Numbered from the stretch's first letter, positions 17,827 to 39,812 are shown. The stretch: 64,000 nt of DNA from Pseudomonadota bacterium (GCA_018240285.1 JAFEGA010000003.1:18097-82096); one strand, 5' to 3'. Numbers and translations are program-made. The notes: generated by a model not told the origin, from the letters alone.

Positions 17827-17833
17827 AGGTGAG

Positions 17834-19057: not shown

Positions 19058-19060
19058 CCA

Positions 19061-19492: not shown

Positions 19493-19530
19493 ATGAAATT
19501 CAACTTGGTTTTATTTTTTGGAGGTGATAT

Positions 19531-19731
19531 ATGCAAATAGACGTAGATAAATTAAGTAATTTAATAAACGAATTATCAGTAGATTGCGTAAATCATTGCG
19601 TCGAATCATCAGTCTTTTTAGGTGAAATTGATGATAACGTGATCAGACTTACGATTATAAATAAAGGAGAAGCTATCGAAGAACACGATTTCACTGGAGT
19701 TATTGACGGATTTAAGTGCGTGAGCGAATGA
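19531..19731 (+). CDS. Hypothetical phage protein (66 aa)
   Basis: GGAGG SD, ATG, intact short ORF overlapping the next start (ATGA); no recognisable family. Confidence 0.5.
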   Translation: MQIDVDKLSNLINELSVDCVNHCVESSVFLGEIDDNVIRLTIINKGEAIEEHDFTGVIDGFKCVSE

Positions 19732-21745: not shown

Positions 21746-21862
21746 CAACAAAAAGACCGAAGATTTATCAGCCATACTGACCAAAACATGCAAAAAGATG
21801 ACCAATTATGACAAAATACAGTCATTATTTTGTATGTAAGTAATTGATAAATAAGTAAATGC

Positions 21863-21954
21863 TGGCGGAGAAGGCGGGATTCGAACCCGCGGTACGGTTT
21901 GAGCCGTACACACGCTTTCCAGGCGTGCACCTTCAACCACTCGGTCACTTCTCC
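21863..21954 (-). tRNA. tRNA-Ser(GGA)
   Basis: GGAGAAG/CTTCTCC acceptor stem, anticodon loop CTGGAAA, long variable arm, GGTTCGAATCC, encoded CCA. Confidence 0.97.
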
Positions 21955-22036: not shown

Positions 22037-22516
22037 TTAGACTAAATATTTCCACACAGAGAAAGTGGCACCTTGTCCCCCTATGGTGCCATCAGGTTTA
22101 TGGATATTCCAGATGAGAATCGGATCGGCCAGAAAACGTTGGCCGGTGCTGGAAATTCTGATGCCTCTGTAATCAGCAATATAGCCTTGCTTTTTCACTT
22201 GTTCCAGCATGCGGGAACGTTCTTCCCGTTTACCGGGTTCCGCCGTCAAGCGGGATGGGGTTTGGGTAAATTGCTGCCAATTCATCGCCCATAAATCGAG
22301 CGCTGCCTGATTGCCGTAATTCAAGACTGGATCGTCTTCCGTGCCGTGCGATGCTACAACAAATGCACTGTTGAATAGCCGCTCCGCTTGTTCTAGCGGC
22401 GTGCCCGTGCGCACGATCAATTCCTGCTTTACCCAGTGCGCGTAGCTATCGAGCAAATACTGGCACCATTGCACCATTTCGGGATCGGTCCAGTTAGTGT
22501 GCTGCAGATCAATCAT
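22037..22516 (-). CDS. Stand-alone MEKHLA domain protein
   Basis: FVVASHGTEDDPVLNYGNQAALDLW...PSRLTAE...YRGIRISSTGQRF pattern. Confidence 0.9.
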   Translation of the reverse strand: MIDLQHTNWTDPEMVQWCQYLLDSYAHWVKQELIVRTGTPLEQAERLFNSAFVVASHGTEDDPVLNYGNQAALDLWAMNWQQFTQTPSRLTAEPGKREERSRMLEQVKKQGYIADYRGIRISSTGQRFLADPILIWNIHKPDGTIGGQGATFSVWKYLV

Positions 22517-22526: not shown

Positions 22527-25112
22527 TTACAACCCTAAATAGCCTTTTGCGATTCGATAATAAACAATCCGCAAGGGTTTGCCTTCACGTGTGATTATCA
22601 TGCTCTGTATCGGTCCGGGCTGATCGAGAAGTCTGGTGATGTCATTGCCAGCACGATCATGCTCAAGGTGTGGTCGCTCCATGCCAACCAGAATGATGGG
22701 CCGGGTGGTGGGCGCTTCCGATGGATGCCAGACTTCATACATGGCGCCGCTGTCGCCAAACATATTGCGTGAGCGGATATCCATTGGTTCACCATGCCGA
22801 TTGTAAAAAGACATCGCGCTGGAAACCGACCATTTACTCATGCCCACGACAAGCGGTTTTTGCCCTGTTTCCCGCTGCACATTTTCGGCAATCTTTTCGA
22901 TCTCGTTGGTGGTTTCGCGCCAATAGTAACGAGTCATGAATGACGGATAGGGTACTCCCGGAATCCCGAGCACGACGTAGTGCAGCACGAGCGTATAGGC
23001 CACGATGGAAATGGCGATGGTCGGCTTCCAGGCGGCTTGAATGCGGCCAACCATGCTGCGCGGATTGACATCCTGCCCCATCATCCATGCCATAGTCGGC
23101 ACTATGGCTAGCCAAAGGGGAGCGGTCCAATGAAAACGCAATGAATCAAACATACTTAAGACAATAAATATGACCAGCGGCACACCTGTGAAGATGCATA
23201 CAAACAGTTTACGTCTGTGTGCCATCTCACTGCTGTTTGGCTGGTTTTTGGGCAGCAGCGCCCAGAGTGCGGCAACCAAACCCACGGGCGATAACAGCAC
23301 CAGCAGATCTACGAGCATAAGATGGAGTGAAAATAAATCATCGCCGACACCGCGCACGCGCGATGACTGAAATACGATCGAAGACCAATGATGTTCCAGA
23401 TTCCAGATAATGACCGGGGAAAACAGTAGTAGCGCCAGCAATGCAGCAAGGTATGGATGGGGACGGATCAGCCAGCGGCGCGCAGCCGGATCGACAATTG
23501 CAAATAACAATGCGGCTATACCGAGCAATCCCAGCGTATATTTGGACAAAATGCCGAGACCAAATGCGATTCCCATACCCAGCCACGCCAAACTGCGGTT
23601 TGCGATCAAGGCGCGTTCCATGTAATAGAGCGTGGCAGCCCAGGCGGCCATCACCGGTGCATCCGTTGTCATGAGAAAGCCGGTGGCAAAGGTGAACGGC
23701 AAAATAGCCAGCAACAGCGCAGTGCGTATGGCGGTCGATTTGTCATACAGATTCTGTGCCAAAGCATACAGAAAACCCATCGTGATCAAACCGCAAAGAA
23801 ATGCACCAATCCTGACACCGAATTCAGTATCGCCGGCGACTGCGGTACCGAGCCAAATCAACCATGCCACCAGGGGCGGATGGTCGTAAAAGCTTAAATC
23901 CATGTGCTGCGCGTAATTCCAGTAGTACGCTTCATCTGGAATCAGCTCTGTTTGACCGAGGTAGATCAGACGCAGCAATACGATGAGTGCGATGATTCCA
24001 ATTGAAGCAACACGCCAGCGCACATCCGGAGCGGGTGAATTCTGTGTCGCGGATGGCAAGTAAAAGACGGATCCCAAGTAAACTATGATTGCGCTAACCG
24101 CAGTGGCGGGAAAAATAGCCAATAGCGGCGGCGTATGCCACTCATAAACCAGCAAAGCCAATAAGCCGCCACGCATGAACAGCGCAATACCGCCAAGCGC
24201 TGTAAAACGGCCAATCAGGCGCCAGTCCAGTTGTCCTTCTGGTTGTAGCCGGAATAATTCGCGTGAATTGAATGCGTACACTGCCGCAGCAGCGAGAAAG
24301 CTCACGATATGCGCCAATGCCACTCCGGCGCCGCTGCTCATCAATAGCTGGTAGATTACAATATCGATAAGCGCGCAAAACAGACCGGTTGTCACATGCC
24401 GCTTGGTATCATGAATAGCAACTGCACCGCCCGCAAGCACCATCAGCCTCTCTAAATAAGCCCATTGGTGGTGAAACGACAATTTCGAAGTGCCGCGTGT
24501 CCGGTCGCGAAAGCAGATGGGGATCTCAATAACTTTCAGTTTGCTTTGTCCAGCCATCAACAATTCGAGCAGAATCTTATAACCGCGCGCTTGCCCGGAA
24601 ACGGCTGAGGCCAGTTCGCGGCGGAAGGCAAAAAAGCCGGAAGTGGCGTCGTTGACATCGCATAGCGGGCGTGCCAGCCAGCCGCCAACGCGCGATAACC
24701 ATTGCCGGTGCAACGGCCAGCCTTCGGTACTGCCACCGGGAACGTAACGGCTGCCGACGGCGATATCGTGACTGCCGTTCAATACCGGTTCCACAAGCGC
24801 ATGTAGCCGCTCGGGCGGATGACTCAGATCGGCATCCATGACGACAATGACTTCGCTCTTCGCGGCAGCTGCGCCAGCCAGAATCGATGCGATCAAATCG
24901 GGCTTTTCCGTGCGCTCAATCAGTCTTACGTGCGCTTTTTCCTCCCAAGCATGAACTTTCTCGGATGTGCCGTCGCGCGAACCGTCGTCGACGAAAATAA
25001 CTTCAAAACTATCCGGCGGCAGATCCAATGCAAGTAGCGAATTTAATAAGGGATCGATGTTGTCAGCTTCATTCAATGTCGGAATGACGATGGAAAATTG
25101 TGTTGAGTGCAT
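22527..25112 (-). CDS. Fusion of DPM1-like GT2, GtrA-like domain and ArnT/GT39-like transferase
   Basis: IPTLNEADNI, VDDGSRDGT, MDADLSHPP, SGFFA (GT2); 4-TM GtrA-like middle; LIPDEAYYWNY...YDHPP (GT-C) with many TM segments. Confidence 0.88.
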   Translation of the reverse strand: MHSTQFSIVIPTLNEADNIDPLLNSLLALDLPPDSFEVIFVDDGSRDGTSEKVHAWEEKAHVRLIERTEKPDLIASILAGAAAAKSEVIVVMDADLSHPPERLHALVEPVLNGSHDIAVGSRYVPGGSTEGWPLHRQWLSRVGGWLARPLCDVNDATSGFFAFRRELASAVSGQARGYKILLELLMAGQSKLKVIEIPICFRDRTRGTSKLSFHHQWAYLERLMVLAGGAVAIHDTKRHVTTGLFCALIDIVIYQLLMSSGAGVALAHIVSFLAAAAVYAFNSRELFRLQPEGQLDWRLIGRFTALGGIALFMRGGLLALLVYEWHTPPLLAIFPATAVSAIIVYLGSVFYLPSATQNSPAPDVRWRVASIGIIALIVLLRLIYLGQTELIPDEAYYWNYAQHMDLSFYDHPPLVAWLIWLGTAVAGDTEFGVRIGAFLCGLITMGFLYALAQNLYDKSTAIRTALLLAILPFTFATGFLMTTDAPVMAAWAATLYYMERALIANRSLAWLGMGIAFGLGILSKYTLGLLGIAALLFAIVDPAARRWLIRPHPYLAALLALLLFSPVIIWNLEHHWSSIVFQSSRVRGVGDDLFSLHLMLVDLLVLLSPVGLVAALWALLPKNQPNSSEMAHRRKLFVCIFTGVPLVIFIVLSMFDSLRFHWTAPLWLAIVPTMAWMMGQDVNPRSMVGRIQAAWKPTIAISIVAYTLVLHYVVLGIPGVPYPSFMTRYYWRETTNEIEKIAENVQRETGQKPLVVGMSKWSVSSAMSFYNRHGEPMDIRSRNMFGDSGAMYEVWHPSEAPTTRPIILVGMERPHLEHDRAGNDITRLLDQPGPIQSMIITREGKPLRIVYYRIAKGYLGL

Positions 25113-25344: not shown

Positions 25345-26649
25345 ATGGGGATTGATTTAGGGTTTGACAGGATTGTCCGGGATTTAAGCGGTGCGAGATG
25401 GATTCTTTCTCAATTAACGGAAGATGATACGGCGGCAACGTCGATTCATCGCTATTTCCGGCGTATCGTCTGGAATGAGAGTGGTTTTGCGGATCGCTGT
25501 ATTATGCTGCTAGTGTTACCGCTTATGCCTATTTTGATCATTGCGCTGACAGTGGTTTTCACGGCGCTCAATGGATACGCGATAAAAAAACGGACGGGGA
25601 AAGGAATTGTCCGCCAAGCTTATGAGCAAATCGGTGTTGCATGCCGTTTTGCAATTTTACCACCCTGGTACTATATCTTTGAGTTACACGATGACGACAA
25701 AAGGCTGCGCGCCAATGAATATCTCAATCGTTTTGAAACGAAGGCCGGGCTGTACCTTTTTCTGCGGAATAATAACGGCGGACTTCCGGTTCCTGCCGAA
25801 CGCACGACGCAATGCATCCGGGACAAGACGCTCTTTATGGTACATTGCCGGAAAAATGGCGTTACCGCGGCGCCTATTCTTTGGATAATCAAGAATAAGG
25901 AAATTATACCGGTGGATTGGGATAAATCCGGTTTTCCGGAGTTTGATCTTTTCATCAAACCGCTGAACGGGCAAGGCGGCAGAGGGACGATCCGCTGGGA
26001 TTATCTGGAGGATGGGCAATTTCTCTGTAACGATGGAAGCCGCGCAAATGGAAGTCAGGTGCTCGAAATTCTGCGGCAAAATTCGGAACACACGGCTTAT
26101 ATCGTGCAACCACGGCTGATTAATCATCCCGAAATTGTTGATTTAGCCTGTGGCGCGTTGGCGACCGTGCGCGTTATGAGTTGCCGCAATGAAACGGGCG
26201 ATTATGAAGTCACCAATGCGGTCTTCCGCATGAAGCGCTACGCGGATGTAATCGTCGACAACTATCACGCAGGCGGCATTGCGGCCAATGTCGATATCGA
26301 AACGGGAGTGCTGGGGGCAGGCACGCGCGGCGGTTGGGGCGTGGTGACCGATGGCTGGTATGAAGAGCATCCCCTGTCGCATACCGCGATACCACAGCGT
26401 AAGCTTCCGTGCTGGGATACGATGATCGATTTTGTGCAGGATGCGCACAATCGCCTTTTCCCGGATCAAGTAGTCATTGGTTGGGATGTCGCCCTGCTCG
26501 AAAATGGTCCATGTCTGATCGAAGCGAATAAAGCACCGGATTTGGACATCATTCAACGCGCACAGAAAGGACCGCTGGGAAATGAGCGGCTCGGAAAACT
26601 CCTGGCATTCAATCTACAACGGACAATCGAAACCAAGTATGCGCATTGA
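25345..26649 (+). CDS. Sugar-transfer-associated ATP-grasp family protein
   Basis: DK..F, FIKPLNGQGGRG, IVQPRLINH, TVRV, DNYHAGG, GWDVA...LIEAN. Confidence 0.8.
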   Translation: MGIDLGFDRIVRDLSGARWILSQLTEDDTAATSIHRYFRRIVWNESGFADRCIMLLVLPLMPILIIALTVVFTALNGYAIKKRTGKGIVRQAYEQIGVACRFAILPPWYYIFELHDDDKRLRANEYLNRFETKAGLYLFLRNNNGGLPVPAERTTQCIRDKTLFMVHCRKNGVTAAPILWIIKNKEIIPVDWDKSGFPEFDLFIKPLNGQGGRGTIRWDYLEDGQFLCNDGSRANGSQVLEILRQNSEHTAYIVQPRLINHPEIVDLACGALATVRVMSCRNETGDYEVTNAVFRMKRYADVIVDNYHAGGIAANVDIETGVLGAGTRGGWGVVTDGWYEEHPLSHTAIPQRKLPCWDTMIDFVQDAHNRLFPDQVVIGWDVALLENGPCLIEANKAPDLDIIQRAQKGPLGNERLGKLLAFNLQRTIETKYAH

Positions 26650-26724
26650 TCAGGGAAAGCGGATCATAACGCCGATTTTAATAAACTGTTCAATCGATAA
26701 TACATCTTTCAATAAAATGACCAT

Positions 26725-26750
26725 AATCCGGTATAATTCGCTACCGGATT
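26725..26750 (+). promoter_or_regulatory. 9-bp inverted repeat overlapping a TATAAT box upstream of the Kdo-hydroxylase-like gene
   Basis: AATCCGGTA-N8-TACCGGATT; TATAAT at 26732-26737. Confidence 0.5.
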
Positions 26751-26782
26751 GTCTTCGTTTCTGAATAACTCGAGGGTATAGC

Positions 26783-27736
26783 ATGATCAATGAGCAACAT
26801 GTCTCCAAAAGCGATGAAACTGAAATCCTGAAAATGTTCACTATTGAGCCTGGAATGAATATGTCATCGCCTGAAGTGCAACGCGCGGCTATTCAAACTC
26901 TGGAAGGTGGAGGGCTTATTTATCTTCCGAAAGGAGGGTTTGAGCTTTCCGAGCGGGAAAGGGAATTGATATCCGATACCGCGAATATCCTGACGCGCGT
27001 ACCCGATGTTGAAAATGGCAAACCTACGATTATTTTCGACCCGAAAAACGGACATATCAAGAAATATCATTTTGCGCAAATACACGGCAAGATGGTGCGA
27101 GCCCAGATCAAAGACGCAGCTTATCGCGATCTGGAGGTCATTATGGCGCGTTATGGACAATGGACTGAGAATATCATCACTCAACTATTTCCCAGCTACC
27201 GCCAAGCACTGGACCGCAAACGGGTTACTTACCGCCCTTTTGCACGCAATAGCACGCAAGCGCTGCATATAGACTCAAGCTATGGTTACCCCACGCAAGG
27301 GAAAAGCATGTTGCGTGTTTTTACCAACATCAATCCGGTTGGCCGGTTACGGGTCTGGCAGCTCGGTGAGCCTTTTGAGCCTTTTGTGCAACGTTTTCTC
27401 CCCGGCGTGCATGTCAAAGGTCCTTCTTGGTTTTCTAAACTGTTAGCCCAGCTTGGTATCGTTGATGGTGTTAAGACTAAATATGATCAATACATTGCGG
27501 CGCTACGCGCACTCGGCATGCGTGATAAGGAATACCAATCCAGTGCTCCGCGCCAATTGATGGAATTTCCCGCCGGAGCAAGTTGGATTGCAATTACCGA
27601 TTTGGTGCTGCATGGTGCAATATCGGGGCAGCATAGTTTGGATCAGACATTTTATTTGCCAGTCGAAGCGATGAACGATCCAGCGCGTTCACCGTTGCGC
27701 ATTCTGGAAAGATTGACTGGTGAAGCGCTGACTTGA
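26783..27736 (+). CDS. Kdo hydroxylase (KdoO)-family dioxygenase
   Basis: LEGGGLIYLP, LHIDS (HxD), LRVFTNINP...RVW..GEPF, YDQY, F.AGASW...LHGAISGQ.SLDQTF. Confidence 0.8.
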   Translation: MINEQHVSKSDETEILKMFTIEPGMNMSSPEVQRAAIQTLEGGGLIYLPKGGFELSERERELISDTANILTRVPDVENGKPTIIFDPKNGHIKKYHFAQIHGKMVRAQIKDAAYRDLEVIMARYGQWTENIITQLFPSYRQALDRKRVTYRPFARNSTQALHIDSSYGYPTQGKSMLRVFTNINPVGRLRVWQLGEPFEPFVQRFLPGVHVKGPSWFSKLLAQLGIVDGVKTKYDQYIAALRALGMRDKEYQSSAPRQLMEFPAGASWIAITDLVLHGAISGQHSLDQTFYLPVEAMNDPARSPLRILERLTGEALT

Positions 27737-27796
27737 GCACAGATACAGATAACAAAGGAAATTAGCTGAAAAGAATACATTTTTCATAAACCACTT

Positions 27797-28888
27797 GTGA
27801 TGGAAATGAAGTCATCAGCAGAGGTGTATTTTGGCGGCCCGGATCAGTCCGCAGGTTATCTGCGCAATGTGCTGGAAGAGCACATTGCTGCTGTTCCATC
27901 CGGCGGATCGATTGATTGGGTTACATATTACTTTCGTGACCTGAAGCTGGCTGAAGCGCTTATTCAAGCGCGCAAGCGCGGTGTTAAGGTTACTTTAAGC
28001 CTGGCAGGTAAACCGCGCACCGCCGATGCTAACGATGCTGTGATTGCCATGCTATCGGGGCCGGAAGGTTTGGGCGATGGCTTGCGTCTCGTGACCTTCC
28101 CAGGGTTGCCAGCTCCGCCAGGGCGGACATGGGCGCCACAATTGCATGAAAAACTTTACTGCTTTTCTCATCCCAAACCCATTGCGTTTATCGGCTCATT
28201 TAATCCGTCCGGAAATCAGGCGGAAGAAAGGCTCGATATCATCCGCGAGATCGGCGATCAAGATAAGGGTTACAATACATTGATAGGACTTACCGATGCA
28301 GAGTTGGTTACGCAACTGGTAAAGCACGCGCGCAACCTGCATAAGGCACAGCCGGGATTGTTTTATCGTTTTTCGGCGGATGCCAATAAAGCGATCCAGA
28401 GTGGCGATACTACCCTTCATTTCTGGCCGCGTACGCGCTCGCATCCGGTGATGCAATTTTTAAGCAAAGTAAGCGATAATGCGCATGTACGCATTTTTGC
28501 GTCGCATATCAGGAGCAAAGCAGCGGTTAATTTTATGATTGAGCTGGCGAGCCGCGGCGTTGATTTGGAGATTTTCGCCGAGGCGACATACCGGCGTGTC
28601 ACATCGAAGGTCGAGCAACGCTTAATGTCCGCCGGAGTTCGCTTTAAGCGCAGCCGGAATACGGATGAGTTGCCGATGCATCTCAAGTTAGTGCTGGTGG
28701 AGGATCGCGGTCAAGTATGGTCTATTTTCGGTAGTTTTAACTGGACTAATCCATCCTTCTGGCTCAATCACGAGATTGCGGCTATTTCAAGCGATCCGGA
28801 ACTATTCAGAGTGTTTTCGGAGCGTTGTGATTGGATAGAAAAAAGGGATTTCGTACTACCTGTGCAAACAGATTTGGTCACTGCGTGA
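27797..28888 (+). CDS. Phospholipase D-superfamily protein, two degenerate HKD domains
   Basis: QLHEKLYCF...GSFN and MHLKLVLVED...GSFNWT...N.E. Confidence 0.8.
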   Translation: MMEMKSSAEVYFGGPDQSAGYLRNVLEEHIAAVPSGGSIDWVTYYFRDLKLAEALIQARKRGVKVTLSLAGKPRTADANDAVIAMLSGPEGLGDGLRLVTFPGLPAPPGRTWAPQLHEKLYCFSHPKPIAFIGSFNPSGNQAEERLDIIREIGDQDKGYNTLIGLTDAELVTQLVKHARNLHKAQPGLFYRFSADANKAIQSGDTTLHFWPRTRSHPVMQFLSKVSDNAHVRIFASHIRSKAAVNFMIELASRGVDLEIFAEATYRRVTSKVEQRLMSAGVRFKRSRNTDELPMHLKLVLVEDRGQVWSIFGSFNWTNPSFWLNHEIAAISSDPELFRVFSERCDWIEKRDFVLPVQTDLVTA

Positions 28889-28893
28889 TAAAA

Positions 28894-30381
28894 ATGACAA
28901 ATACAAACGTGGGAGATTCGGTTTCAACGCTTATTATTCCGGTTGAGAGTCAGGTACGTGAACTGGACGCCAAAATTCTTTTGGCGTGTTTCGCAGCCGA
29001 ACGTGGCTTTCCAGTATTGATCGGTTCACGGGCTTTTACGCATTTTCAGGTGGCGTCCATCCCGCGTGGCGTTTATCTCGCTAAAAGCATGCGCAGTCTC
29101 AGCAGTTCAATGTTCAAGGCGTTACGTCAATTGGGCCATGAAATTGTTGCCTGGGAAGAAGAAGCGCTGGTGCATCCGCCTGCCGATACCTATTTTACAC
29201 TGCGGCTTTCTCCGCAAACGATCAATAAAGTGTCGCATGTCTTCGCCTGGGGGCGAGAAAATGTCGATTTAATGCAGCAATACCCCGACCTGCCGCAGAA
29301 TCTGCCGATTCACATTACGGGCAATCCGCGCGGCGATATGCTGAGACCGGAATTACGTCCGTTTTTCGATCCCGAAGTTAAAAAGTTGCGCGATCGATAT
29401 GGCGATTTCATTCTGATCAACACGAATTTCAGCGATGTGAATCCTTTTATTCCCAGCATTGGCTTATTTCAGGGCACAAAGGATTCCGATAAGACGGCGC
29501 GCCGCGGTCAAGCGGGAATCGGTATGAGTCTTGAATTTGCCGAAGGTTTGCGCGATCACAAATTAGCGATACTGGAAGATTTCAAACAATTGATTCCGGC
29601 GCTCGAACGGGCATTTCCCGATATGACTATCGTTGTCCGTCCGCACCCCAGCGAGAGCAATCAAATTTATCAGGATCTCGCCGCGCGCAGCGATCGGATC
29701 GTAATCAACAAGGAAGGTAACGTCATCCCTTGGTTGCTGGCGGCGAAGGCACTGGTGCACAACGGCTGCACAACAGGCTTGGAGGCCTATGTTCTCGGCG
29801 TTCCGGCAGTTTCCTATCTGGCGACATTGAATAAGCTTTATGACTATGATTTTCAGGGATTGCCGACAAAACTCAGTTATCAGTGCTTCAATTTTGAAGA
29901 GCTGCGGGAGATATTGAACCGGATCCTGGCAGGGGAACTCGGCGGCGCTGGCGGCGAAGAGCGCCAGGCCCTGATCGATTATTATCTGGCGGCACAGAAA
30001 GGCCCCTTGGCATGCGAACGCATTATCGATGTGCTGGAATCCAGCGGTTATTCTAAAAACCACCCGCCGCCCAGCCCACTGAGCACTTTTGCACAAGGGT
30101 GGTTATTCGTAAAAATTAAAGCGGCATTGACCAATCTCTACATGCGCCGTCCCGGACCCAACCGGTTGGCTTATCACGATCATCGTTTTCCGGAAATTTC
30201 AGTAGCTGATCTGGAGCAAAAGATCACCCGTTTTGGCCAGCTTCTGAATCGTTTTGATACGATCAAAATCGAACAACACTCAAAGCATCTTTTCATGATT
30301 CGTTCCCAATACGGAAGAAAAATGCCGCAAACCGCGCCTGCGGCGGAAATCAGTGAAAATTTCCGCGCTGTAAAAGAGTGA
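28894..30381 (+). CDS. Surface carbohydrate biosynthesis protein (TIGR04396-like, GT-B-type fold)
   Basis: IPVESQVRELDAKILLA, WEEEALV, TGNPRGDMLR, ILINTNF, VRPHPSE, VHNGCTTGLEA; start ATG 28894. Confidence 0.75.
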   Translation: MTNTNVGDSVSTLIIPVESQVRELDAKILLACFAAERGFPVLIGSRAFTHFQVASIPRGVYLAKSMRSLSSSMFKALRQLGHEIVAWEEEALVHPPADTYFTLRLSPQTINKVSHVFAWGRENVDLMQQYPDLPQNLPIHITGNPRGDMLRPELRPFFDPEVKKLRDRYGDFILINTNFSDVNPFIPSIGLFQGTKDSDKTARRGQAGIGMSLEFAEGLRDHKLAILEDFKQLIPALERAFPDMTIVVRPHPSESNQIYQDLAARSDRIVINKEGNVIPWLLAAKALVHNGCTTGLEAYVLGVPAVSYLATLNKLYDYDFQGLPTKLSYQCFNFEELREILNRILAGELGGAGGEERQALIDYYLAAQKGPLACERIIDVLESSGYSKNHPPPSPLSTFAQGWLFVKIKAALTNLYMRRPGPNRLAYHDHRFPEISVADLEQKITRFGQLLNRFDTIKIEQHSKHLFMIRSQYGRKMPQTAPAAEISENFRAVKE

Positions 30382-30418
30382 GTGTGATAAGACGAACAAG
30401 GCGTTCCCGGATTAAGTC

Positions 30419-31204
30419 ATGAAAAAAATTTTTCATCGGTACTTTTATAAAAGACCGATCCGTAATCTCGCGACGCAGATCAAGTCAGTGGTTGATTCTC
30501 TGGACGGTTCGGTGCCGGTACTGATCGTGTCTTATAATAACGGCGTTTACGTCGACCATTGTGTGCGGCAACTCAACACCCGTTCCATTAAACCGGTCAT
30601 TATCGACAATGCTTCCAAGGACGCCGAGACGCTCGCCATTCTTTCCGGGATCGCTGCGGCAAAAAGCGCTTTCGTCGTGCGATCAGCGGTTAACATGGGT
30701 GCGCGCGTAGGGTTTCAAGGACCGGTGTACGATGTTTTGCCGGATATATTCGGTTATACCGATCCGGACCTGCTGTTTAACCGGCACTTACCGGCGGATT
30801 TCATCCAGCAGCTGACGGATGTTTGCGATCGTTTCAAATGCTTCAAGGCCGGCTTTGCTCTGCCTTACCAGGTTGAATACAGTTTGACCGATCGCCGTAT
30901 GAAATCAAGCTTGGGCAATATCGTTCCTTTCGATAGACTCGTGACGGTGCCCCAATGGGAGTCGCGCTTTTGGCGTAAACCGCTCAAGCATGATCGGTTG
31001 GAAGTGTATGCCGCGCCTATCGATACAACGTTTGCGATTTATTGCAAAAAATACTATAACGGAGATTTTTTCGATGCCGTGCGCGTTGCCGGGGATTTTT
31101 CCGCGTTGCACATGCCGTGGTTTCCTGATTTGGATCTGCTGTCACCACAGCACCGCTCAGCTTACCTGAAAGGCAATAAATCATCGACTTGGGTCACCAA
31201 TTAG
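30419..31204 (+). CDS. Glycosyltransferase family 2-like protein
   Basis: LIVSYNN, IIDNAS, YTDPD (DxD) and APIDTTFA motifs. Confidence 0.65.
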   Translation: MKKIFHRYFYKRPIRNLATQIKSVVDSLDGSVPVLIVSYNNGVYVDHCVRQLNTRSIKPVIIDNASKDAETLAILSGIAAAKSAFVVRSAVNMGARVGFQGPVYDVLPDIFGYTDPDLLFNRHLPADFIQQLTDVCDRFKCFKAGFALPYQVEYSLTDRRMKSSLGNIVPFDRLVTVPQWESRFWRKPLKHDRLEVYAAPIDTTFAIYCKKYYNGDFFDAVRVAGDFSALHMPWFPDLDLLSPQHRSAYLKGNKSSTWVTN

Positions 31205-31336
31205 ATTGTGATTCCTTGGAGCTGAGGTAAATGTAAAACGGTTTCTTTATACAGAGTATGGATGTAGCGCATAACCGCCAGTTTTTGCTGGTATTTAGTT
31301 TATCAATAAATTAATAATGGAATAACCGGAAATTTT

Positions 31337-32215
31337 ATGAAAGTACCTAAGGTAATTGCCGAAATCGGTTGTAATCATAAAGGTGACATGGAAATCGCCA
31401 GGGAAATGATCGGAATTGCAGCGACATTTGCGAAATGCGATTTTGTAAAGTTCCAGAAGCGCTCCAACAGGGAACTGCTGACGCCGGAAGAATATAATGC
31501 ACCGCATCCCAATGCGCAGAACAGCTATGGCGATACTTATGGCGCACATCGGGAATTTTTGGAATTTGACGTCGATCAGCACCGGCAATTGCAGCAATAC
31601 TGCAAGGAGTTCGGTATCGGTTACTCAACCTCCGTGTGGGATCTGACTTCGGCGCAGCAAATTGCCGGACTCAACCCTGTGTTCATCAAAATACCTTCCG
31701 CGTGCAATCTCAATTTCCCGATGCTCGAATTTCTCGCCAGAGATTATCGCGGTGACATTCACATCTCCGTCGGTATGACCACGCATGAGGAGCAAGAACA
31801 AATCGTACAATTGATGGAAAAATGCAATGCCGCCGAGCGCGTTGTTTTATATGCCTGTACTTCCGGTTATCCCGTTCCATTTGATCAAGTGTGCTTGCTT
31901 GAGCTGCAAACGCTGAATAAGCGCTTCGGTTCGCGCATCAAGGAAATTGGATTTTCCGGGCATCATTTGGGAATTGCCGTCGATATCGCGGCGGTTGCGT
32001 TGGGTGCGTCCTGGATTGAGCGTCATTTCACCCTGGATCGCACCTGGAAGGGAACCGATCATGCGGCATCGTTGGAACCGGATGGTCTGCGCCGTCTGGT
32101 GCGGGATGTGCACGCTGTTTCTCAGGCGCTGACCTTCAAGGATGCGCCGATACTGGCAATCGAAGCACCGCAGCGCGCCAAGCTGAAACGGGTGCAGGGG
32201 GTACATTTCAACTGA
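31337..32215 (+). CDS. Short NeuB-family nonulosonate(-9-phosphate) synthase lacking the SAF/AFP domain
   Basis: IAEIGCNHKG, VKFQKR, IKIPSA, GFSGHH, ERHFTLD...DHAASLEP; 292 aa. Confidence 0.9.
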   Translation: MKVPKVIAEIGCNHKGDMEIAREMIGIAATFAKCDFVKFQKRSNRELLTPEEYNAPHPNAQNSYGDTYGAHREFLEFDVDQHRQLQQYCKEFGIGYSTSVWDLTSAQQIAGLNPVFIKIPSACNLNFPMLEFLARDYRGDIHISVGMTTHEEQEQIVQLMEKCNAAERVVLYACTSGYPVPFDQVCLLELQTLNKRFGSRIKEIGFSGHHLGIAVDIAAVALGASWIERHFTLDRTWKGTDHAASLEPDGLRRLVRDVHAVSQALTFKDAPILAIEAPQRAKLKRVQGVHFN

Positions 32216-33381
32216 TGCGCTGGGTTGCTTTTATGCCGCTGCGCGCCAATTCAAAATCCATCGTCGATAAAAATGTGCGTGCTATCGCAGGGCGGCCACT
32301 GTTTGCATGGAGTCTGGAACAAGCGATTGCCTCGCAGTGTTTCGACGAAATTTACGTGGCATCCGATTCCGCAAGAATCCGCGAGAAAGTACTGAATGAA
32401 TTTCCGGCAGGGGTGACGGTGCTGGATCGCTCTGCCGAAACGTGCACCGACACGGCCAGCACGGAAAGCGCCATGCTCGAGTTCAAGCAACGCGCTGCTT
32501 TCGATGTGTTGTGTTTGATCCAGGCCACTTCGCCGCTCACGCGTGCGGAAGATTTCATTGCGGCTAAGCAGAAGTTTCAAAATGAACATCTCGATTCCTT
32601 GTTAACGGCGGTGGAATCCAAGCGGTTTTATTGGACCAGTGACGGTACGCCGATCAATTACGACCCGTTAAAGCGTCCGCGGCGCCAGGATTTTGCAGGG
32701 TGCATGATGGAAAATGGCGCTTTTTATTTCACCCGGCTGGAAATCCTTGAGGAATCCGGCAACCGGCTGGGCGGGCGTATCGGCATTCATGAAATGGCGC
32801 CGGAGACAGCGATCGAGATCGATGATGAAACCGACTGGATCATCGTTGAGCAGTTGTTGTTGCGGCAAAAGCTGATGAAGCACAGCGCATACGCCGGGCA
32901 AGTGAAAATACTGGTGCTGGATGTCGATGGCACCTTTACCGATGGCGGCATGTACTATGGGCCGGAGGGCGAGGCATTGAAAAAATTCAACACGCGCGAT
33001 GCGCATGGTTTGCAACTGCTGCGCAAGAACGGCATCGGTGTTTGCGTCATGAGCAGCGAAAACAGCCCCGCCGTTGCGGCGCGAATGAAAAAACTCGGCA
33101 TCGAGGAATACTATCCGGGCGTCAACGACAAACTTGCGCAATTGAGAGAACTGGCAAGCCGCAAGGGGATTGCGTTGCAAGACATTGCTTATATCGGTGA
33201 CGATCTGTGCGATTTGGCCTGTCTCGAGCATGTAGGTTTTGCCTGTTGCCCGGCCGATGCAGTGCCGGAAGTTTTGCAAAAAGCCCGTTATGTTTGCGAA
33301 CATTCCGCCGGCCACGGCGCCGTGCGTGAAGTTTGCGATCTTATTGTAAAAATCAAAAATTCCGGCCGGATTACTGCGTAG
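32215..33381 (+). CDS. CMP-nonulosonate cytidylyltransferase fused to a KdsC-like HAD phosphatase
   Basis: PLRANSKSIVDKN, LIQATSP, ENGAFY, EIDD; then LDVDGTFTDG, FNTRD, YIGDDLCD, ADA...GGHGAVRE-type tail. Confidence 0.92.
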   Translation: MRWVAFMPLRANSKSIVDKNVRAIAGRPLFAWSLEQAIASQCFDEIYVASDSARIREKVLNEFPAGVTVLDRSAETCTDTASTESAMLEFKQRAAFDVLCLIQATSPLTRAEDFIAAKQKFQNEHLDSLLTAVESKRFYWTSDGTPINYDPLKRPRRQDFAGCMMENGAFYFTRLEILEESGNRLGGRIGIHEMAPETAIEIDDETDWIIVEQLLLRQKLMKHSAYAGQVKILVLDVDGTFTDGGMYYGPEGEALKKFNTRDAHGLQLLRKNGIGVCVMSSENSPAVAARMKKLGIEEYYPGVNDKLAQLRELASRKGIALQDIAYIGDDLCDLACLEHVGFACCPADAVPEVLQKARYVCEHSAGHGAVREVCDLIVKIKNSGRITA

Positions 33382-33444
33382 GTATGCGCCATCGGTCACT
33401 TGTCGAATGAATAATGGTTGTGCTGGTTCCTCACAAAAAATGAC

Positions 33445-34725
33445 ATGAGAGCACTCTTCTTTCTTCGTCATTACAACGATATCGATCATATCACCCCGGT
33501 TATTTTCAAATGGGTCAAATCCGGTCATGTTTGCGATGTGGTGCTGATCGGTCATCGCACTATCCGTAACGATTACCGCATTGAGTTCCTGCGCAAGCTG
33601 CCGGACGTGCGGGTGGCGCATATCCGTGATGTATTGACGCCGTTGCAATATCTGTTGTGGCGGCTGCAAACGTTGTTATTGTCACCGGGCATGAAGCGCT
33701 CGTTGCTAAAACCTTTGGCACAGAAAGCGATTGAAATTTACGGTACCGGAAACCGGCAGAAAGTTTGGCGCGATACGGCCGGAAAAGTGCTGGAGAGAAG
33801 TTTTACCGGTAGCGGCAAAGGTGTGGTTGTATTCGACTGGGTGACCCGGAATTCCCCGGTGTGCATCGAGTGGGTCGAAACCGTTATTGCCATGGCGCAC
33901 GATAGAGGCCTTGGCGCGGTTTCACTGCCGCACGGTGATAGTCCGCACGCCAATCACCTGATCCGGCGCGGTGAGTGGAAATTGCAGCCGGATACCATGT
34001 ATTCCGCCGGTTGTTTATTCGATAAAGTCGTGGTGCCGAATGAATTGTGCGCTGTGCGTTTCCGGCCTTTCATGCAACCACAATCGATCGCAGTGCTGGG
34101 GTCGCCACGTTACTGCACCGAATGGCTGGATAAATTGGCGGTATTACAACCGCCTTCACCGCTCGCACGTTCCGCTAGCCGCCTTAAATTGGTCATCTTC
34201 TTGCGCAAAAGCGATTTCACCACATTCTGGGAAGAAGTCGGTGAAGTGGTGCAGATGATCGCGGCTTTTCCCGGTGTTGAAATCATCATCAAACCGCACA
34301 CCCGCGGCGGCTGGCGTCAGCCTCTGACACGAAATGCGGTCATTTTACGTTTGCCGAATGTAAGCATCGCGGCAGATGATGTACACTCCGTTCATTTATT
34401 GAATTGGGCGGATGTCGTCATGGATCTCGCAACTTCGGTTGTTTTTGAGGCAGTTGTCGCAGGAAAACCAGTGCTGGCGGCGGATTATCTGCACGCGGGC
34501 CGCTCCGTTGTGGCCGACTATATGCCCGAAACCGAATTGCGCTGCCGCGATGATGTATACCAAAGAATCGGCGAGTTGATATCGTCAGGTTGCGGTTCAT
34601 TTTACGATGAAGAACACCGGCAGCGTTTTCTCAAGGAAATTATCCATGGTTGCGGAGATGAGGATGTTTTACCGCGCTATGTAGCACTACTGGAAGAAAG
34701 TTGCCGCCTCCGCGAAATACGGTAA
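33445..34725 (+). CDS. Hypothetical GT-B-like protein, candidate nonulosonate transferase
   Basis: NDIDHITP, LPHG, GSPRY, IKPHTR, TSVVFEA motifs like polysaccharide transferases; follows the CMP synthetase; start ATG 33445. Confidence 0.55.
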   Translation: MRALFFLRHYNDIDHITPVIFKWVKSGHVCDVVLIGHRTIRNDYRIEFLRKLPDVRVAHIRDVLTPLQYLLWRLQTLLLSPGMKRSLLKPLAQKAIEIYGTGNRQKVWRDTAGKVLERSFTGSGKGVVVFDWVTRNSPVCIEWVETVIAMAHDRGLGAVSLPHGDSPHANHLIRRGEWKLQPDTMYSAGCLFDKVVVPNELCAVRFRPFMQPQSIAVLGSPRYCTEWLDKLAVLQPPSPLARSASRLKLVIFLRKSDFTTFWEEVGEVVQMIAAFPGVEIIIKPHTRGGWRQPLTRNAVILRLPNVSIAADDVHSVHLLNWADVVMDLATSVVFEAVVAGKPVLAADYLHAGRSVVADYMPETELRCRDDVYQRIGELISSGCGSFYDEEHRQRFLKEIIHGCGDEDVLPRYVALLEESCRLREIR

Positions 34726-34732
34726 TGAATCC

Positions 34733-35797
34733 ATGGAAAATCCGGAAACGCAAGCCACTGCCAAGACTGTTGACGTCGTAATTCCGGTTTATAACGCACC
34801 GGAATTGACGAAGCGGTGTATCGATTCAATCGTTACTCACCTGGGAAAATCCATACAGCGCGTGCTCATTCAGGATGATGCATCCGGCTGTGAAACGCGT
34901 GAGATGCTGGACCATCTGCCGTATCCCTGCGTCGAAGTTTGTCATGCGGAAAAAAACCAGGGATTTGGTTTGACGGTCAATGCGGCCGTTGGCCGTTCGA
35001 ATGCTTTTTATGTGCTGATTTTAAACTCCGATACCGAAGTCAATCAGAACATTCTGCCGCAACTCTGCGCGGCATTCGATGCCGACGATAAACTGGCGGC
35101 CATCATTCCGGCGGGCAACAGCTATAACCGTTTCGATTTCAGCCGCTACGCATTGCACGAGGGAAATTATATTCAGACTTACTATCTTCGTGGCCATGCC
35201 ATTCTGATCCGCCGCGACGCCTTCTTGGCAGTTGGCGGCTTCGATGCCACATTCGGCCGCGGATACTACGAAGATATCGACCTTGGCCGCCGCCTCGATT
35301 TGAACGGCTGGCGTTTTGGCGTTCACCCCAACGTTCATATTTATCATAAAGGCGCAGGATCGTTCGGCGAGGATCGCATCCAACTGGCGCGGCGGAATCG
35401 TGCCGTGTACTTGTCGCGCTATCCCGAAGCGCAACAAAATATTCTATTGCTTTCGGGCAATTGCGCGCTGGCGGATTTCAATGAAGATTTTCTTCAAGCC
35501 ATTGAGCAAAGATTCCATGCCGGCGGGTCCGTTCATTGGTTTTCGCCGGCACAACCTTCCCATTTGAGCTGCTTACAAATGCATGGCTACGCTGCGCGGC
35601 TAAGAATGATATTGAAAGTATTATCACGCGGCTGGCAGCGCGCCGACAGACGCGTGACAGAAATATGGATCGCACCGGGCGCTCCCTTTTTTTTGCGCGC
35701 ACTGCTGACTGTTTGGGCTCATTGGCAGAATCTTAAGATCTTGGTATTTAAAGAGGCTATGACGCAAGATCCTGCTACCAAACTCAGAGTAAAATGA
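34733..35797 (+). CDS. Glycosyltransferase family 2 protein
   Basis: VVIPVYN, QDDAS, NQGFG..VN, ILNSD, FGRGYYEDIDL. Confidence 0.88.
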   Translation: MENPETQATAKTVDVVIPVYNAPELTKRCIDSIVTHLGKSIQRVLIQDDASGCETREMLDHLPYPCVEVCHAEKNQGFGLTVNAAVGRSNAFYVLILNSDTEVNQNILPQLCAAFDADDKLAAIIPAGNSYNRFDFSRYALHEGNYIQTYYLRGHAILIRRDAFLAVGGFDATFGRGYYEDIDLGRRLDLNGWRFGVHPNVHIYHKGAGSFGEDRIQLARRNRAVYLSRYPEAQQNILLLSGNCALADFNEDFLQAIEQRFHAGGSVHWFSPAQPSHLSCLQMHGYAARLRMILKVLSRGWQRADRRVTEIWIAPGAPFFLRALLTVWAHWQNLKILVFKEAMTQDPATKLRVK

Positions 35798-37053: not shown

Positions 37054-37809
37054 TTAATGGCGCAATTTATAGCCGGTTTTAAGCATCCGTATGGTCAACA
37101 TGGAAATGGCCACCAGGCATATTGCCACAATCAACAGGCTAAGATAAGGCGAAATATCCGATACGCCGAAGAAGCCGTAGCGGAATCCGTCGATCATATA
37201 AAAAAACGGATTGAGGTGAGAAAAAAACTGCCAACCTGCGGGCAGCGAATGAATGGTATAAAACACACCGGATAAGAAAGTCAGCGGCAAAATGATAAAG
37301 TTCTGGAAAGCCGCCAGTTGATCGAATTTATCCGCCCAGATACCGGCAATCAACCCCAATGCGCCCAGTATCGCGCTGCCCAACACGACAAACAGCAAAG
37401 ACCAGACCGGCAGCATCAGCGGGATGTCGAAAAACACCAGTGTCACCAGATAAACACCCAAACCGACCAGCAGTCCGCGCACGATAGAGGCGATGATGTA
37501 TGCAAAGAATATGGCGTGATACGACAACGGAGACAGCAGGATAAACACGATATTGCCGCTGATTTTCGACTGAATCATGCTGGATGAAGCGTTGGCAAAG
37601 GCATTTTGAATGATCGCCATCATCACCAGTCCGGGAATCAGGAAGGTGGTGTACGCCACGCCCGGATACACTTCCACATGCGCTTCCAGCACGTGAAAGA
37701 AAATCAGCAAGTACAGCAACGTGGAAACCATAGGCGCGATGATTGTCTGGAAACCGACTTTCCAGAAGCGCAGCAACTCCTTATACAGCAACGTAAAAAA
37801 TCCGGTCAT
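37054..37809 (-). CDS. yadH: ABC-2 transporter permease (YadH-like)
   Basis: KELLRFWKV, PGLVMM...NAF, PLTFLSGVFY, NPFFYMIDGFRYG. Confidence 0.85.
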   Translation of the reverse strand: MTGFFTLLYKELLRFWKVGFQTIIAPMVSTLLYLLIFFHVLEAHVEVYPGVAYTTFLIPGLVMMAIIQNAFANASSSMIQSKISGNIVFILLSPLSYHAIFFAYIIASIVRGLLVGLGVYLVTLVFFDIPLMLPVWSLLFVVLGSAILGALGLIAGIWADKFDQLAAFQNFIILPLTFLSGVFYTIHSLPAGWQFFSHLNPFFYMIDGFRYGFFGVSDISPYLSLLIVAICLVAISMLTIRMLKTGYKLRH

Positions 37810-38723
37810 TTTGCTTGATTACCGCCATTTTTCATCATACTGACAAAAACATCTTCCAAGTCGGGCTGTTGCAGGTGCATTTCCAGAATCTGGATTTGCG
37901 CAGACCGTAAAACCGACAGGATGGATTCGACTTGCGCGTAATGATCGATGTGCAATTCGGCCATGCCGCCGTCGTGCCGGATCTGCAACGGCTGCAGCTC
38001 GGCCGGCAAGGTATCGGGTTGCAATCGCAATTGCAACGATTTGCCGGTGGACATTGCACCGATCAGATTCTGCGTGCTATCCAGCGCGACAATTCTGCCT
38101 TCCTTCAGCATCGCCACGCGATTGCACAGAGTTTCCGCTTCCTCCAGATAGTGCGTGGTCAGCACGATGGTGTGGCCATTGCGGTTCAGCCGTTGAATAA
38201 AATCCCACAACGTTTGGCGCAACTCCACATCGACACCGGCAGTCGGTTCGTCCAGAATGATGACCGGCGGTTTGTGCACCAGCGCCTGCGCAACCAATAC
38301 GCGGCGTTTCATGCCGCCGGATAATGCCCGCATGTTGGCGTTCGCCTTATCCGTCAAATCCAGATGCTCGATGACTTCATCCACCCAGCGCGTGTTGTGC
38401 TTGATACCGTAGTAACCCGACTGAATCAGCAGTACTTCGCGCACTGTAAAAAAAGGATCAAAAACCAATTCCTGCGGCACCACACCCAGATTGCTGCGCG
38501 CTTGTTGGTATCGCGCGATGACATCGTGCCCCATCACACTCACCGAACCGCTGTCGGCCAACGATAAACCGGCAATGATGTTGATCAGCGTTGTTTTACC
38601 GGCGCCATTCGGCCCCAGCAGCGCAAAAAACTCGCCGCTGTGAATCTCTAGATCGATGCCGGACAAGGCATGCACGGCGCCAAAGCGCTTCGATACTTGC
38701 TTGACGGCGATAGCGGGCAACAT
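37806..38723 (-). CDS. yadG: ABC transporter ATP-binding protein (YadG-like)
   Basis: GPNGAGKTT, LSGGMKRR, LDEPTAGVD. Confidence 0.85.
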   Translation of the reverse strand: MLPAIAVKQVSKRFGAVHALSGIDLEIHSGEFFALLGPNGAGKTTLINIIAGLSLADSGSVSVMGHDVIARYQQARSNLGVVPQELVFDPFFTVREVLLIQSGYYGIKHNTRWVDEVIEHLDLTDKANANMRALSGGMKRRVLVAQALVHKPPVIILDEPTAGVDVELRQTLWDFIQRLNRNGHTIVLTTHYLEEAETLCNRVAMLKEGRIVALDSTQNLIGAMSTGKSLQLRLQPDTLPAELQPLQIRHDGGMAELHIDHYAQVESILSVLRSAQIQILEMHLQQPDLEDVFVSMMKNGGNQAK

Positions 38724-39113: not shown

Positions 39114-39734
39114 TTATTTCTTACCTTCCAGAGATTTATTCTTGTCCGCCAGTGCTTTCAGCAATCCTTCAACCCCGCCTTTGCGCACCTGGCTGTTAAA
39201 TGATCCGCGGTAATTGGTGACCAAGCTAACGCCACCGACCGTCACATCGTAAACTTTCCAGCCATCCGGCTTTTTCTCCATACTATAGTCAATCGGCACC
39301 GGTTCCCTTCCTTTTCCTTGCACAACCACTGTACGCACCGTAGTTTCGACGCTGTCGCCCAGTTGCTTGATCGGATTGACTTTGATCGTTTCGTGATTAT
39401 AAGTCGTCAGCGCATTGGAATAGGTGCGCACCAGCAAGGTACGGAATTCGTCGACCAATTTGGTTTGCTGTCCCGGCTCGGCTTTCGACCAATGTTGCCC
39501 CATCGCAAGCTGCGTCATGCGAGTAAAATTGAAGTGCGGCAGTATTTTGGTCTCGATCAGATCGAGCATTTTATCTTTATTGCCATTTTTCAATTCTTCA
39601 TCTTTCTGGATGATCTCGATCACTTCCTTGACGGTTTTGTCGACCAGCCGGTCGGGTGCCATCTCTACTGACCACGCCGGAAACGCCAGTAAGCTCGAGA
39701 TCGTCAATATTACTATTCCAAGAATTTTTTTCAT
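39114..39734 (-). CDS. mlaC: Phospholipid-binding protein MlaC
   Basis: Signal peptide, F..LLVRTYS, WKVYDVTVGGVSLVTNYR. Confidence 0.93.
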   Translation of the reverse strand: MKKILGIVILTISSLLAFPAWSVEMAPDRLVDKTVKEVIEIIQKDEELKNGNKDKMLDLIETKILPHFNFTRMTQLAMGQHWSKAEPGQQTKLVDEFRTLLVRTYSNALTTYNHETIKVNPIKQLGDSVETTVRTVVVQGKGREPVPIDYSMEKKPDGWKVYDVTVGGVSLVTNYRGSFNSQVRKGGVEGLLKALADKNKSLEGKK

Positions 39735-39812
39735 TGTTTCCTCACACTCATTTTATTTCACAGTCTGCAATACTAAACCAACAATCGCTAAATTAACAAA
39801 TATCCGCTCGCG

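Follow-up and report, generated by a model that had tools for sequence, protein, structure and literature searches.

Nine open reading frames (ORFs; i.e. g1-g9) lie tightly packed on the plus strand between positions 25345 and 35797 of a 64,000-nucleotide stretch of DNA (hereafter the window) from a Pseudomonadota bacterium (GCA_018240285.1 JAFEGA010000003.1:18097-82096). The window corresponds to C33:18097-82096 of a host genome of 2.97 Mb, which is assembled in 48 contigs and is 99.98% complete. A first-pass annotation, made without knowledge of the origin of the DNA, had described the locus as an unusual surface-glycan cluster built around a pathway for the nonulosonic acid Kdn (i.e. 3-deoxy-D-glycero-D-galacto-non-2-ulosonic acid) in an organism resembling an ammonia oxidiser. 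The analysis described here points to a Kdn pathway that would serve a surface glycolipid in a bacterium without a recognisable route to lipid A.

Gene content and conservation of the locus

Domain labels were assigned by Pfam and NCBIfam profile searches of the window proteins. All nine co-oriented ORFs were found and these labels agreed with the identities proposed in the first-pass annotation; as had also been claimed, no epimerase, dehydratase, aminotransferase or acetyltransferase is encoded in the locus. A tenth gene (i.e. g0) is divergent from the operon and is probably associated with it. The features are as follows, with coordinates counted from the first letter of the window.

g0, 22527-25112, minus strand: protein of 861 aa in which a family 2 glycosyltransferase (GT2) domain resembling polyprenyl-phosphate hexose synthases is fused to a multi-span ArnT/PMT-like GT-C domain (NCBIfam ArnC/ArnT-like matches)
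g1, 25345-26649, plus strand: membrane-anchored ATP-grasp protein of the ATPgrasp_ST type (PF14397, 116 bits), with a transmembrane-like segment at residues 46-64
g2, 26783-27736, plus strand: KdoO-family Fe(II)/2-oxoglutarate dioxygenase (PF11004 Kdo_hydroxy, 284 bits)
g3, 27797-28888, plus strand: soluble protein of the phospholipase D (PLD) superfamily, matching PLDc_2 twice
g4, 28894-30381, plus strand: 'surface carbohydrate biosynthesis protein' of the TIGR04396 family (406.9 bits against a cut-off of 125)
g5, 30419-31204, plus strand: 261-aa protein assigned to no family, with a GT2 resemblance below threshold (Glycos_transf_2, E 0.009)
g6, 31337-32215, plus strand: short NeuB of 292 aa that lacks the SAF domain (PF03102, 242 bits)
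g7, 32215-33381, plus strand: fusion of an N-terminal CTP_transf_3 domain and a C-terminal KdsC/YrbI-type HAD domain (C0), labelled by Pfam and NCBIfam
g8, 33445-34725, plus strand: GT-B-like protein of a Nitrosomonadaceae-wide family, with no Pfam match and a weak BFO_1060-like match
g9, 34733-35797, plus strand: family 2 glycosyltransferase (Glycos_transf_2, 64 bits)

Intergenic gaps range from -1 to 133 bp, and the start of g7 shares one base with the end of g6. The most likely start codon of g4 is the ATG at 28894 rather than the TTG at 28831, and that of g8 lies most likely at 33445 rather than at 33418. A scan of the locus for promoters and terminators produced sites that were no more numerous than in shuffled sequences. 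The best matches of g6 were to proteins named Nitrosomonas and Nitrosospira, so the host is taken to be Nitrosomonas-like, in line with the ammonia-oxidiser-like host suggested previously.

In the cluster-level homology search that had been proposed, all nine genes were found in the same order, with 78-93% identity, in a Nitrosomonas metagenome-assembled genome (MAG; L001), and the full set recurred in a metagenome contig (L099). Because the nine-gene order recurs in the Nitrosomonas MAG, the locus is regarded as conserved rather than as a fortuitous arrangement. Gene g5 was found only in the window and in these two relatives. The locus is a composite of a Kdn core (g3, g4, g6 and g7), duplicated transferases (g8 and g9), the lineage-specific g5, a tailoring pair (g1 and g2) and the associated g0 fusion.

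A predicted pathway to CMP-Kdn

Across 283 aa, the product of g6 and the Kdn-9-phosphate (Kdn-9-P) synthetase of Prymnesium parvum share 61% identity; the P. parvum comparison sequences were taken from the supplement of PMC6200933 (Wagstaff et al.). The P. parvum synthetase fully converts mannose 6-phosphate (Man-6-P) and does not convert N-acetylmannosamine 6-phosphate (ManNAc-6-P), arabinose 5-phosphate (Ara-5-P), mannose, N-acetylmannosamine (ManNAc), mannosamine or arabinose at all (PMC6200933). The cytidine monophosphate (CMP)-Kdn synthetase of P. parvum, an enzyme that does not activate N-acetylneuraminic acid (Neu5Ac; PMC6200933), shares 43% identity with the N-terminal domain of g7, and its structure (i.e. 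PpNeuA, 9t4z) is the best match of g7 in the PDB, with 153 bits. The C-terminal domain of g7 shares 37.5% identity with the Bacteroides Kdn-9-P phosphatase BT1713 and 40% with E. coli KdsC. When these proteins were aligned, the position of Glu56 of BT1713 fell within SSE in g7, TGE in BT1713 and TGR in E. coli KdsC; a Glu is also present at this position in the g7 orthologues of Nitrosospira, Bacteroides faecis and Elongatibacter. This Glu is said, in work attributed to Lu et al. in 2009 and Daughtry et al. in 2013, to be a marker of the Kdn-9-P phosphatase lineage. Fusion to a cytidylyltransferase is frequent in this lineage, and the presence of a fused phosphatase in g7 implies a phosphorylated intermediate.

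Genes for the other nonulosonic acid pathways (i.e. neuC, leg and pse) had been suggested as a search target elsewhere in the host. In the 99.98%-complete genome there were no matches to Epimerase_2 (PF02350, UDP-GlcNAc 2-epimerase), the DegT profile (PF01041) gave partial matches of 35 bits only and hence no real sugar aminotransferase, and g6 was the sole NeuB. The HAD domain of g7 is the only KdsC-family domain of the genome, and a type II mannose-6-P isomerase domain is present (199 bits). Homology of g6 and g7 to characterised Kdn enzymes, the Glu marker and these whole-genome checks all support the Kdn-type pathway of the first-pass annotation, and the core of the locus very likely encodes a route to CMP-Kdn. 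Along this route, g6 would condense Man-6-P with phosphoenolpyruvate to form Kdn-9-P, which would be dephosphorylated by the C-terminal HAD domain of g7; Kdn would then be converted to CMP-Kdn by the N-terminal domain of the same protein.

Lipid A and Kdo genes of the host

Genes for lipid A and for 3-deoxy-D-manno-oct-2-ulosonate (Kdo) were sought in the genome by tblastn with E. coli K-12 protein queries. LpxA, LpxB, LpxC, LpxH, LpxL, KdsA, KdsD, WaaA, WaaC and WaaF were not found in this search, and LpxD gave only a weak match to hexapeptide repeats. The best score for the KdsA profile in the genome was 47.5 bits as compared to a cut-off of 314, and none of 151 Nitrosomonadaceae genomes, the sample used for all family-wide counts, contained a KdsA above the cut-off. 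The skp, fabZ and rnhB genes are contiguous at C14:22010-23525, with lpxD, lpxA and lpxB cleanly absent between them. Genes kept in the genome include LpxK (Pfam, 220 bits), a KdsB-like gene, LptA/B/D/F/G, several MsbA-like genes and a WaaL-like gene; the LpxK gene is located at C20:22046-23029. In accord with these results, a previous survey by Opiyo et al. (2010) reported lpxK as the sole gene of the set for N. europaea and next to none for N. multiformis (PMC3087551). As the other Lpx genes, KdsA, KdsD and WaaA were not found, Kdo2-lipid A cannot be made by any known route, and the KdoO-like g2 is thus left without Kdo2-lipid A to act on. The literature that was searched contained no account of what fills the outer leaflet of Nitrosomonas or Nitrosospira.

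Two further blocks of the genome are relevant to the envelope. An operon at C11:77-86 kb (L081:5053-13849) encodes a KdsB-like cytidylyltransferase, which scored 312 bits (cut-off 255), together with an HpcH/HpaI pyruvate aldolase, a 2-hydroxyacid dehydrogenase, an epimerase/dehydratase and a HAD protein; a 2-keto-3-deoxy acid may be formed and CMP-activated by these enzymes in a non-canonical way. The operon is divergent from a group consisting of paralogues of g8 and g9 (i.e. g8' and g9'), the WaaL-like gene and an O-methyltransferase gene. A KdsB-like gene next to an HpcH/HpaI aldolase gene was present in 147 of the 151 family genomes. The second block, at C43:82-90 kb (L096:6203-13756), encodes GNAT-like and NTP_transf_3 proteins, LptF, LptG, a CDP-alcohol phosphatidyltransferase, DAGK_cat and a Tam41-like protein, and is a candidate lipid-anchor pathway for a substitute of lipopolysaccharide (LPS). 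In unrelated metagenome contigs, homologues of g1-g2 have parts of this block as neighbours. The Kdn cluster of Nitrosospira adjoins LptF-LptG, CDP-alcohol transferase, DAGK_cat and Tam41-like genes, and in loci of the N. communis type g7 is followed by a WaaL-like gene and g0.

Predicted transferases and accessory proteins

An AlphaFold2 (AF2) model of g4 has a GT-B fold with a predicted local distance difference test (pLDDT) score of 88.9. The protein carries an invariant RPHPxE motif and matches the BFO_1060 family with an E value of 6e-15. The g4 product is predicted to be a CMP-Kdn-dependent transferase or polymerase. The g8 protein exhibits a weak match to KpsC (6mgd, E 0.0065). Its paralogue g8', with 65% identity, is located on C11 near the KdsB-like gene, and members of the g8 family are found in 145 of the 151 Nitrosomonadaceae genomes. 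Given this neighbour and this breadth, g8 appears to be the version, within the Kdn locus, of a transferase that occurs family-wide and presumably depends on CMP-ulosonates, and it is predicted to use a CMP-ulosonate donor. The paralogue of g9 on C11 (i.e. g9', 52% identity) lies beside g8' and the WaaL-like gene. For g5, neither a significant family match nor a PDB match was obtained.

The two catalytic motifs of g3 read HEKLYCFS...GSFN and HLKLVLVE...GSFNWT; they correspond to the pair of motifs typical of PLD enzymes (i.e. HxK(x)4D(x)6G(S/T)xN), with the first copy a variant in which Ser replaces Asp. A weak match of g3 to mitochondrial cardiolipin hydrolase was also observed. The N-terminal domain of g0 matches dolichol-P-mannose synthase (5mlz) with 159 bits, and the protein contains approximately 13 transmembrane-like segments. 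This gene occurs at the other end of the Kdn cluster in six relatives (L008/L012/L014 and L112/L114/L149), and a paralogue is located on C43.

The KdoO-like and ATP-grasp pair

Against the NCBIfam KdoO equivalog model, g2 scored 210.9 bits, which is under the cut-off of 300 bits, and against the KdoO of M. infernorum (5y9i) it scored 154 bits; the HxD motif and the distal His were aligned, indicating an intact iron triad. The gene is present as a sole copy in the genome and its product is 34-43% identical to KdoO-family proteins of other Gammaproteobacteria. In the family sample, g2 was detected in 27 of 151 genomes. Of these, 24 also contained g6 and the other three were MAGs that are 62-81% complete. 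Co-occurrence of g2 and g6 gave Fisher P values of 4e-15 in the family and 8e-6 in the genus, values that are uncorrected for shared ancestry. Decayed copies of g2 were observed beside g6 in two genomes. Relatives of g2 with 44-57% identity were found in other lineages; of 25 such loci with a length of 6 kb or more, 21 had a g1 orthologue next to the g2 gene, whereas the three relatives examined at 36-39% identity were without an ATP-grasp gene. The g1 protein is predicted, from its domain type, to be a carboxylate-amine or carboxylate-alcohol ligase. Literature searches returned nothing on a pairing of KdoO with ATP-grasp proteins.

Distribution of the Kdn cluster

The pair of a short NeuB and a CMP-synthetase/HAD fusion was kept in almost every one of 80 loci from different phyla, with 65-93% identity, in Nitrosomonadaceae, other Proteobacteria, Bacteroidota and Verrucomicrobiota. 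A TIGR04396 gene was located directly upstream of the short NeuB gene in approximately 30 proteobacterial loci, with a PLD gene upstream of TIGR04396 in 18 loci, such that the core of PLD, TIGR04396, NeuB and CMP/HAD genes is widespread in Proteobacteria. Three gammaproteobacterial MAGs (L038, L042 and L043) contain two NeuB genes, one of the Kdn type and one encoding a protein of ~28% identity, together with two TIGR04396 genes; as the second TIGR04396 accompanies the second NeuB, these loci fit a scheme in which each nonulosonic acid has its own TIGR04396 transferase. Orthologues of g6 were present in 38 of the 151 Nitrosomonadaceae genomes, including 18 of 82 in the genus of the window and most of an apparent Nitrosospira genus. 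We infer from these counts that about a quarter of the species of the family carry the Kdn locus, as an accessory. No account of Kdn, or of nonulosonates in general, in Nitrosomonas emerged from the literature searches.

In Nitrosospira (L011:5198-7730; also L005, L006, L009 and L015), a reverse-strand trio of genes is situated between the PLD and TIGR04396 genes. The trio encodes a short-chain dehydrogenase/reductase, a Gfo/Idh/MocA oxidoreductase and a second cytidylyltransferase of 238 aa, suggesting a further activated sugar in those species.

Neighbouring features of the window

To the left of the locus is a low-GC stretch (0.41-0.45) that extends from 15000 to 21954 and ends at a tRNA-Ser gene (21863-21954, minus strand). 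Tyrosine-recombinase fragments are found within it at 17863-18609 (minus strand) and 21144-21839 (plus strand), and the stretch is a probable decayed integrated element. Downstream of g0, at 22037-22516 on the minus strand, is a gene for a stand-alone MEKHLA-domain protein (159 aa, 171 bits). On the right-hand side, an ABC-2 permease/ATPase pair (YadH/NodI-like) is encoded at 37054-38723 on the minus strand, 1.3 kb downstream of the locus; after this pair, and downstream of djlA, genes for MlaC/HpnM-like, MlaE and MlaF proteins are present at 39114-41885 (minus strand). Two GGDEF diguanylate cyclase genes with SiaD-like best matches, at 43406-45058 and 48240-49706 (both minus strand), flank genes for malic enzyme and serB. 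Their products are possible biofilm regulators near the surface-glycan locus.

Proposed product and alternative explanations

The best overall explanation of these results, and one that we consider reasonably probable, is a Kdn core that feeds a lipid-A-independent surface glycolipid. CMP-Kdn would be used at the cytoplasmic face by g4 and g8, and further sugars would be added by the GT2 enzymes g9 and perhaps g5. The acceptor would be a lipid-linked glycan of a lipid-A-independent envelope glycolipid system of the Nitrosomonadaceae, associated with Lpt and a WaaL-like ligase, whose universal parts would be encoded elsewhere, i.e. by the operon of KdsB-like, HpcH-aldolase, g8', g9' and WaaL-like genes and by the block of LptFG, DAGK_cat, Tam41-like and CDP-alcohol transferase genes. 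A polyprenyl-phosphate hexose would be supplied and transferred on the periplasmic side by g0, while g3 might perform a phosphodiester transfer or hydrolysis linked to g4. The g1-g2 pair would tailor a lipid-linked 3-deoxy-2-ulosonate, with g2 acting as a C3 hydroxylase in the manner of KdoO and g1 ligating a group to a carboxylate. In this genome the tailored residue would be Kdn or whichever product the KdsB-like enzyme activates; Kdn is the leading candidate at a little short of an even chance, the KdsB-like product is a somewhat less probable second and something else is the least likely. A bolder extension, to which we give little credence, is that an Lpt-exported glycolipid replaces LPS, with Kdn taking the place of Kdo in carriers of the locus. 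Kdn would then be attached via g8 and TIGR04396 rather than WaaA, hydroxylated at C3 by g2 and modified at its carboxylate by g1, and g3 would join it to an anchor derived from a phospholipid; hydroxylated Kdn would, if all of this held, be a previously undescribed 'Ko-like' nonulosonic acid.

Several observations weigh against the Kdn-glycolipid explanation or parts of it. With respect to the pathway itself, the HAD domain of g7 scored higher with KdsC models than with a model based on BT1713 and was under both equivalog cut-offs; its score against NF058599 was 141 bits (cut-off 180). A synthase that makes Neu5Ac or an acid of the legionaminic/pseudaminic type, from a precursor provided by another locus or by uptake, is highly improbable. 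Databases label g6 as an N-acetylneuraminate synthase and the protein matches the TIGR03569 (209 bits) and PseI (140 bits) models, but both scores are far under the equivalog cut-offs (400 and 340 bits, respectively), the genome is without a 2-epimerase, a real sugar aminotransferase or a second NeuB, and the closest characterised relative of g6 refuses ManNAc and ManNAc-6-P. A role of g6 and g7 as KdsA and KdsC stand-ins for Kdo synthesis was rejected, as there is no KdsD in the genome and the closest characterised synthase refuses Ara-5-P. The g1-g2 pairs of distant lineages often adjoin LptFG, DAGK_cat, Tam41-like, NTP_transf_3 and GNAT-like genes and have no NeuB gene within 10 kb. The link of g1-g2 to Kdn may therefore reflect co-inheritance and not shared chemistry, and the recurrence of the pair by LptFG and lipid genes without NeuB suggests a separable module tied to an Lpt-linked lipid system. 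It is accordingly a serious contender, although at rather less than even probability, that g1-g2 act on a 3-deoxy-ulosonate or other residue of the KdsB-like/HpcH-aldolase pathway and that their position beside the Kdn genes is due to module clustering and co-inheritance. The prevalence of the KdsB-like and HpcH/HpaI aldolase genes (147/151) agrees with this possibility, as do some Nitrosospira genomes that carry g2 far from g6 (230 kb in G010). Conversely, no reasonably complete genome of the family has g2 without g6 although the KdsB-like pathway is universal, and decay of g2 was seen only where g6 was kept. This alternative concerns the hydroxylation of Kdn only and leaves the Kdn pathway unaffected.

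The nature of the final product is also open to a different interpretation, in which the nine genes direct the synthesis of a capsule or exopolysaccharide that contains Kdn and leaves the cell by an unrelated system, such as the ABC-2 transporter downstream, with no tie to an Lpt/WaaL glycolipid. The presence of the ABC-2 pair so close to the locus is a point in its favour, and the ABC-2 and Mla genes may have a role in export of the locus product, the ABC-2 pair possibly in that of a secreted polymer. Capsules that contain Kdn have been described from Serratia and Klebsiella (PMC9000132), and the same short NeuB and CMP/HAD pair occurs in a Bacteroides capsule locus behind an UpxY antiterminator (L065). 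Foldseek matches of the g4 model include TagF-like polymerases; they are to generic GT-B folds, with template-modelling scores of 0.4-0.5, and UDP-sugar 2-epimerases score equally with TagF and transferases, which weakens the assignment of g4 as a Kdn transferase. The AF2 model of g8 is confident only in part, with a pLDDT of 63, a poor C-terminal half and generic GT-B matches including WaaA. In a test for a classical capsule or O-antigen system, however, no Wzx/Wzy, Wzm/Wzt, KpsMT, chain-length or outer-membrane export gene was found among g0-g9, nor were Wza, Wzc or KpsC/S genes present in the locus. Moreover, djlA separates the ABC-2 pair, which is encoded on the opposite strand, from the cluster, and the pair was not observed beside the cluster in the other loci examined, whereas clusters of relatives adjoin LptFG, WaaL-like and ArnT-like genes; a WaaL-like gene is a direct neighbour in relatives only. 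We regard a free polymer as unlikely, and a lipid-linked, Lpt/WaaL-associated product is favoured over a free capsule because the locus lacks classical export genes and the neighbours of related clusters are Lpt and WaaL-like genes. Acquisition of the locus as a horizontally transferred island was considered as well; the tRNA-Ser gene and integrase fragments are found immediately left of the locus, whose GC content (0.46-0.54) nonetheless matches that of the genome.

Significance for ammonia-oxidising bacteria

Kdn synthesis itself is already known. What appears to be new is the host, the company of the genes and the combination of a KdoO-family enzyme with putative CMP-ulosonate-type transferases in a lineage without lipid A. 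Nitrosomonas and Nitrosospira keep the LPS transport machine despite having nearly no Kdo2-lipid A genes, and the locus and the two family-wide blocks are candidate genes for the molecule of the outer leaflet. Because the locus places KdoO-family and CMP-ulosonate-type genes in a lipid-A-less lineage, the question of this molecule in ammonia-oxidising bacteria becomes experimentally approachable. A detectable sugar is predicted (i.e. Kdn, possibly hydroxy-Kdn), dioxygenases of the KdoO family may have a new substrate here, and two uncharacterised transferase families (i.e. TIGR04396 and the g8 family) are given a testable function. The surfaces of these bacteria matter in the formation of biofilms and granules in wastewater treatment and in phage attachment. 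Were Kdn no more than a constituent of an ordinary exopolysaccharide, what is left would be a new host for a known pathway.

Comparison with known systems

The Kdn pathway of Bacteroides thetaiotaomicron (BT1713-BT1715) and P. parvum resembles the predicted pathway in its identical three chemical steps and in a KdsC-like phosphatase with the Glu marker. It differs in that BT1713 is a stand-alone phosphatase whereas here, and in B. faecis, the phosphatase is fused to the cytidylyltransferase; the host here is a chemolithoautotroph without lipid A, and the accompanying transferase and tailoring genes are others. The KdoO enzymes of Burkholderia, Yersinia and Methylacidiphilum belong to the same Pfam family as g2, are of the same length and have the same HxD...H site, so that the Fe/2-oxoglutarate chemistry, with a membrane-bound ulosonate as substrate, is presumably the same. 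The defining substrate of KdoO is Kdo2-lipid A, to which the host of g2 has no known route; g2 is also outside the equivalog (211 against 300 bits) and is typically paired with an ATPgrasp_ST gene. For g4 and g8, the likeness to KpsC/KpsS, bacterial sialyltransferases, Tannerella BFO_1060 and TagF resides in the GT-B architecture and in adjacency to a CMP-sugar synthetase, and g4 shares with the KpsC/KpsS/BFO_1060/TagF group a motif of the His-Pro type after a beta-strand in the C-terminal domain, although similarity to KpsC and BFO_1060 is marginal (E 0.0065, and 55 bits against a cut-off of 200).

Kdn is also found in bacterial surface polymers. The teichulosonic acids of Streptomyces contain Kdn. 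Other Kdn-bearing polymers are the KL1/KL2 capsules of Serratia marcescens, the K4 capsule of Klebsiella and the K-antigen of Sinorhizobium fredii (PMC9000132). The likeness to these systems is the use of Kdn as a bacterial surface sugar, which is predicted for the present locus. Those polymers are components of capsules or walls that are accompanied by classical export genes, whereas the locus described here lacks such genes and is kept with genes of the Lpt, WaaL and ArnT types.

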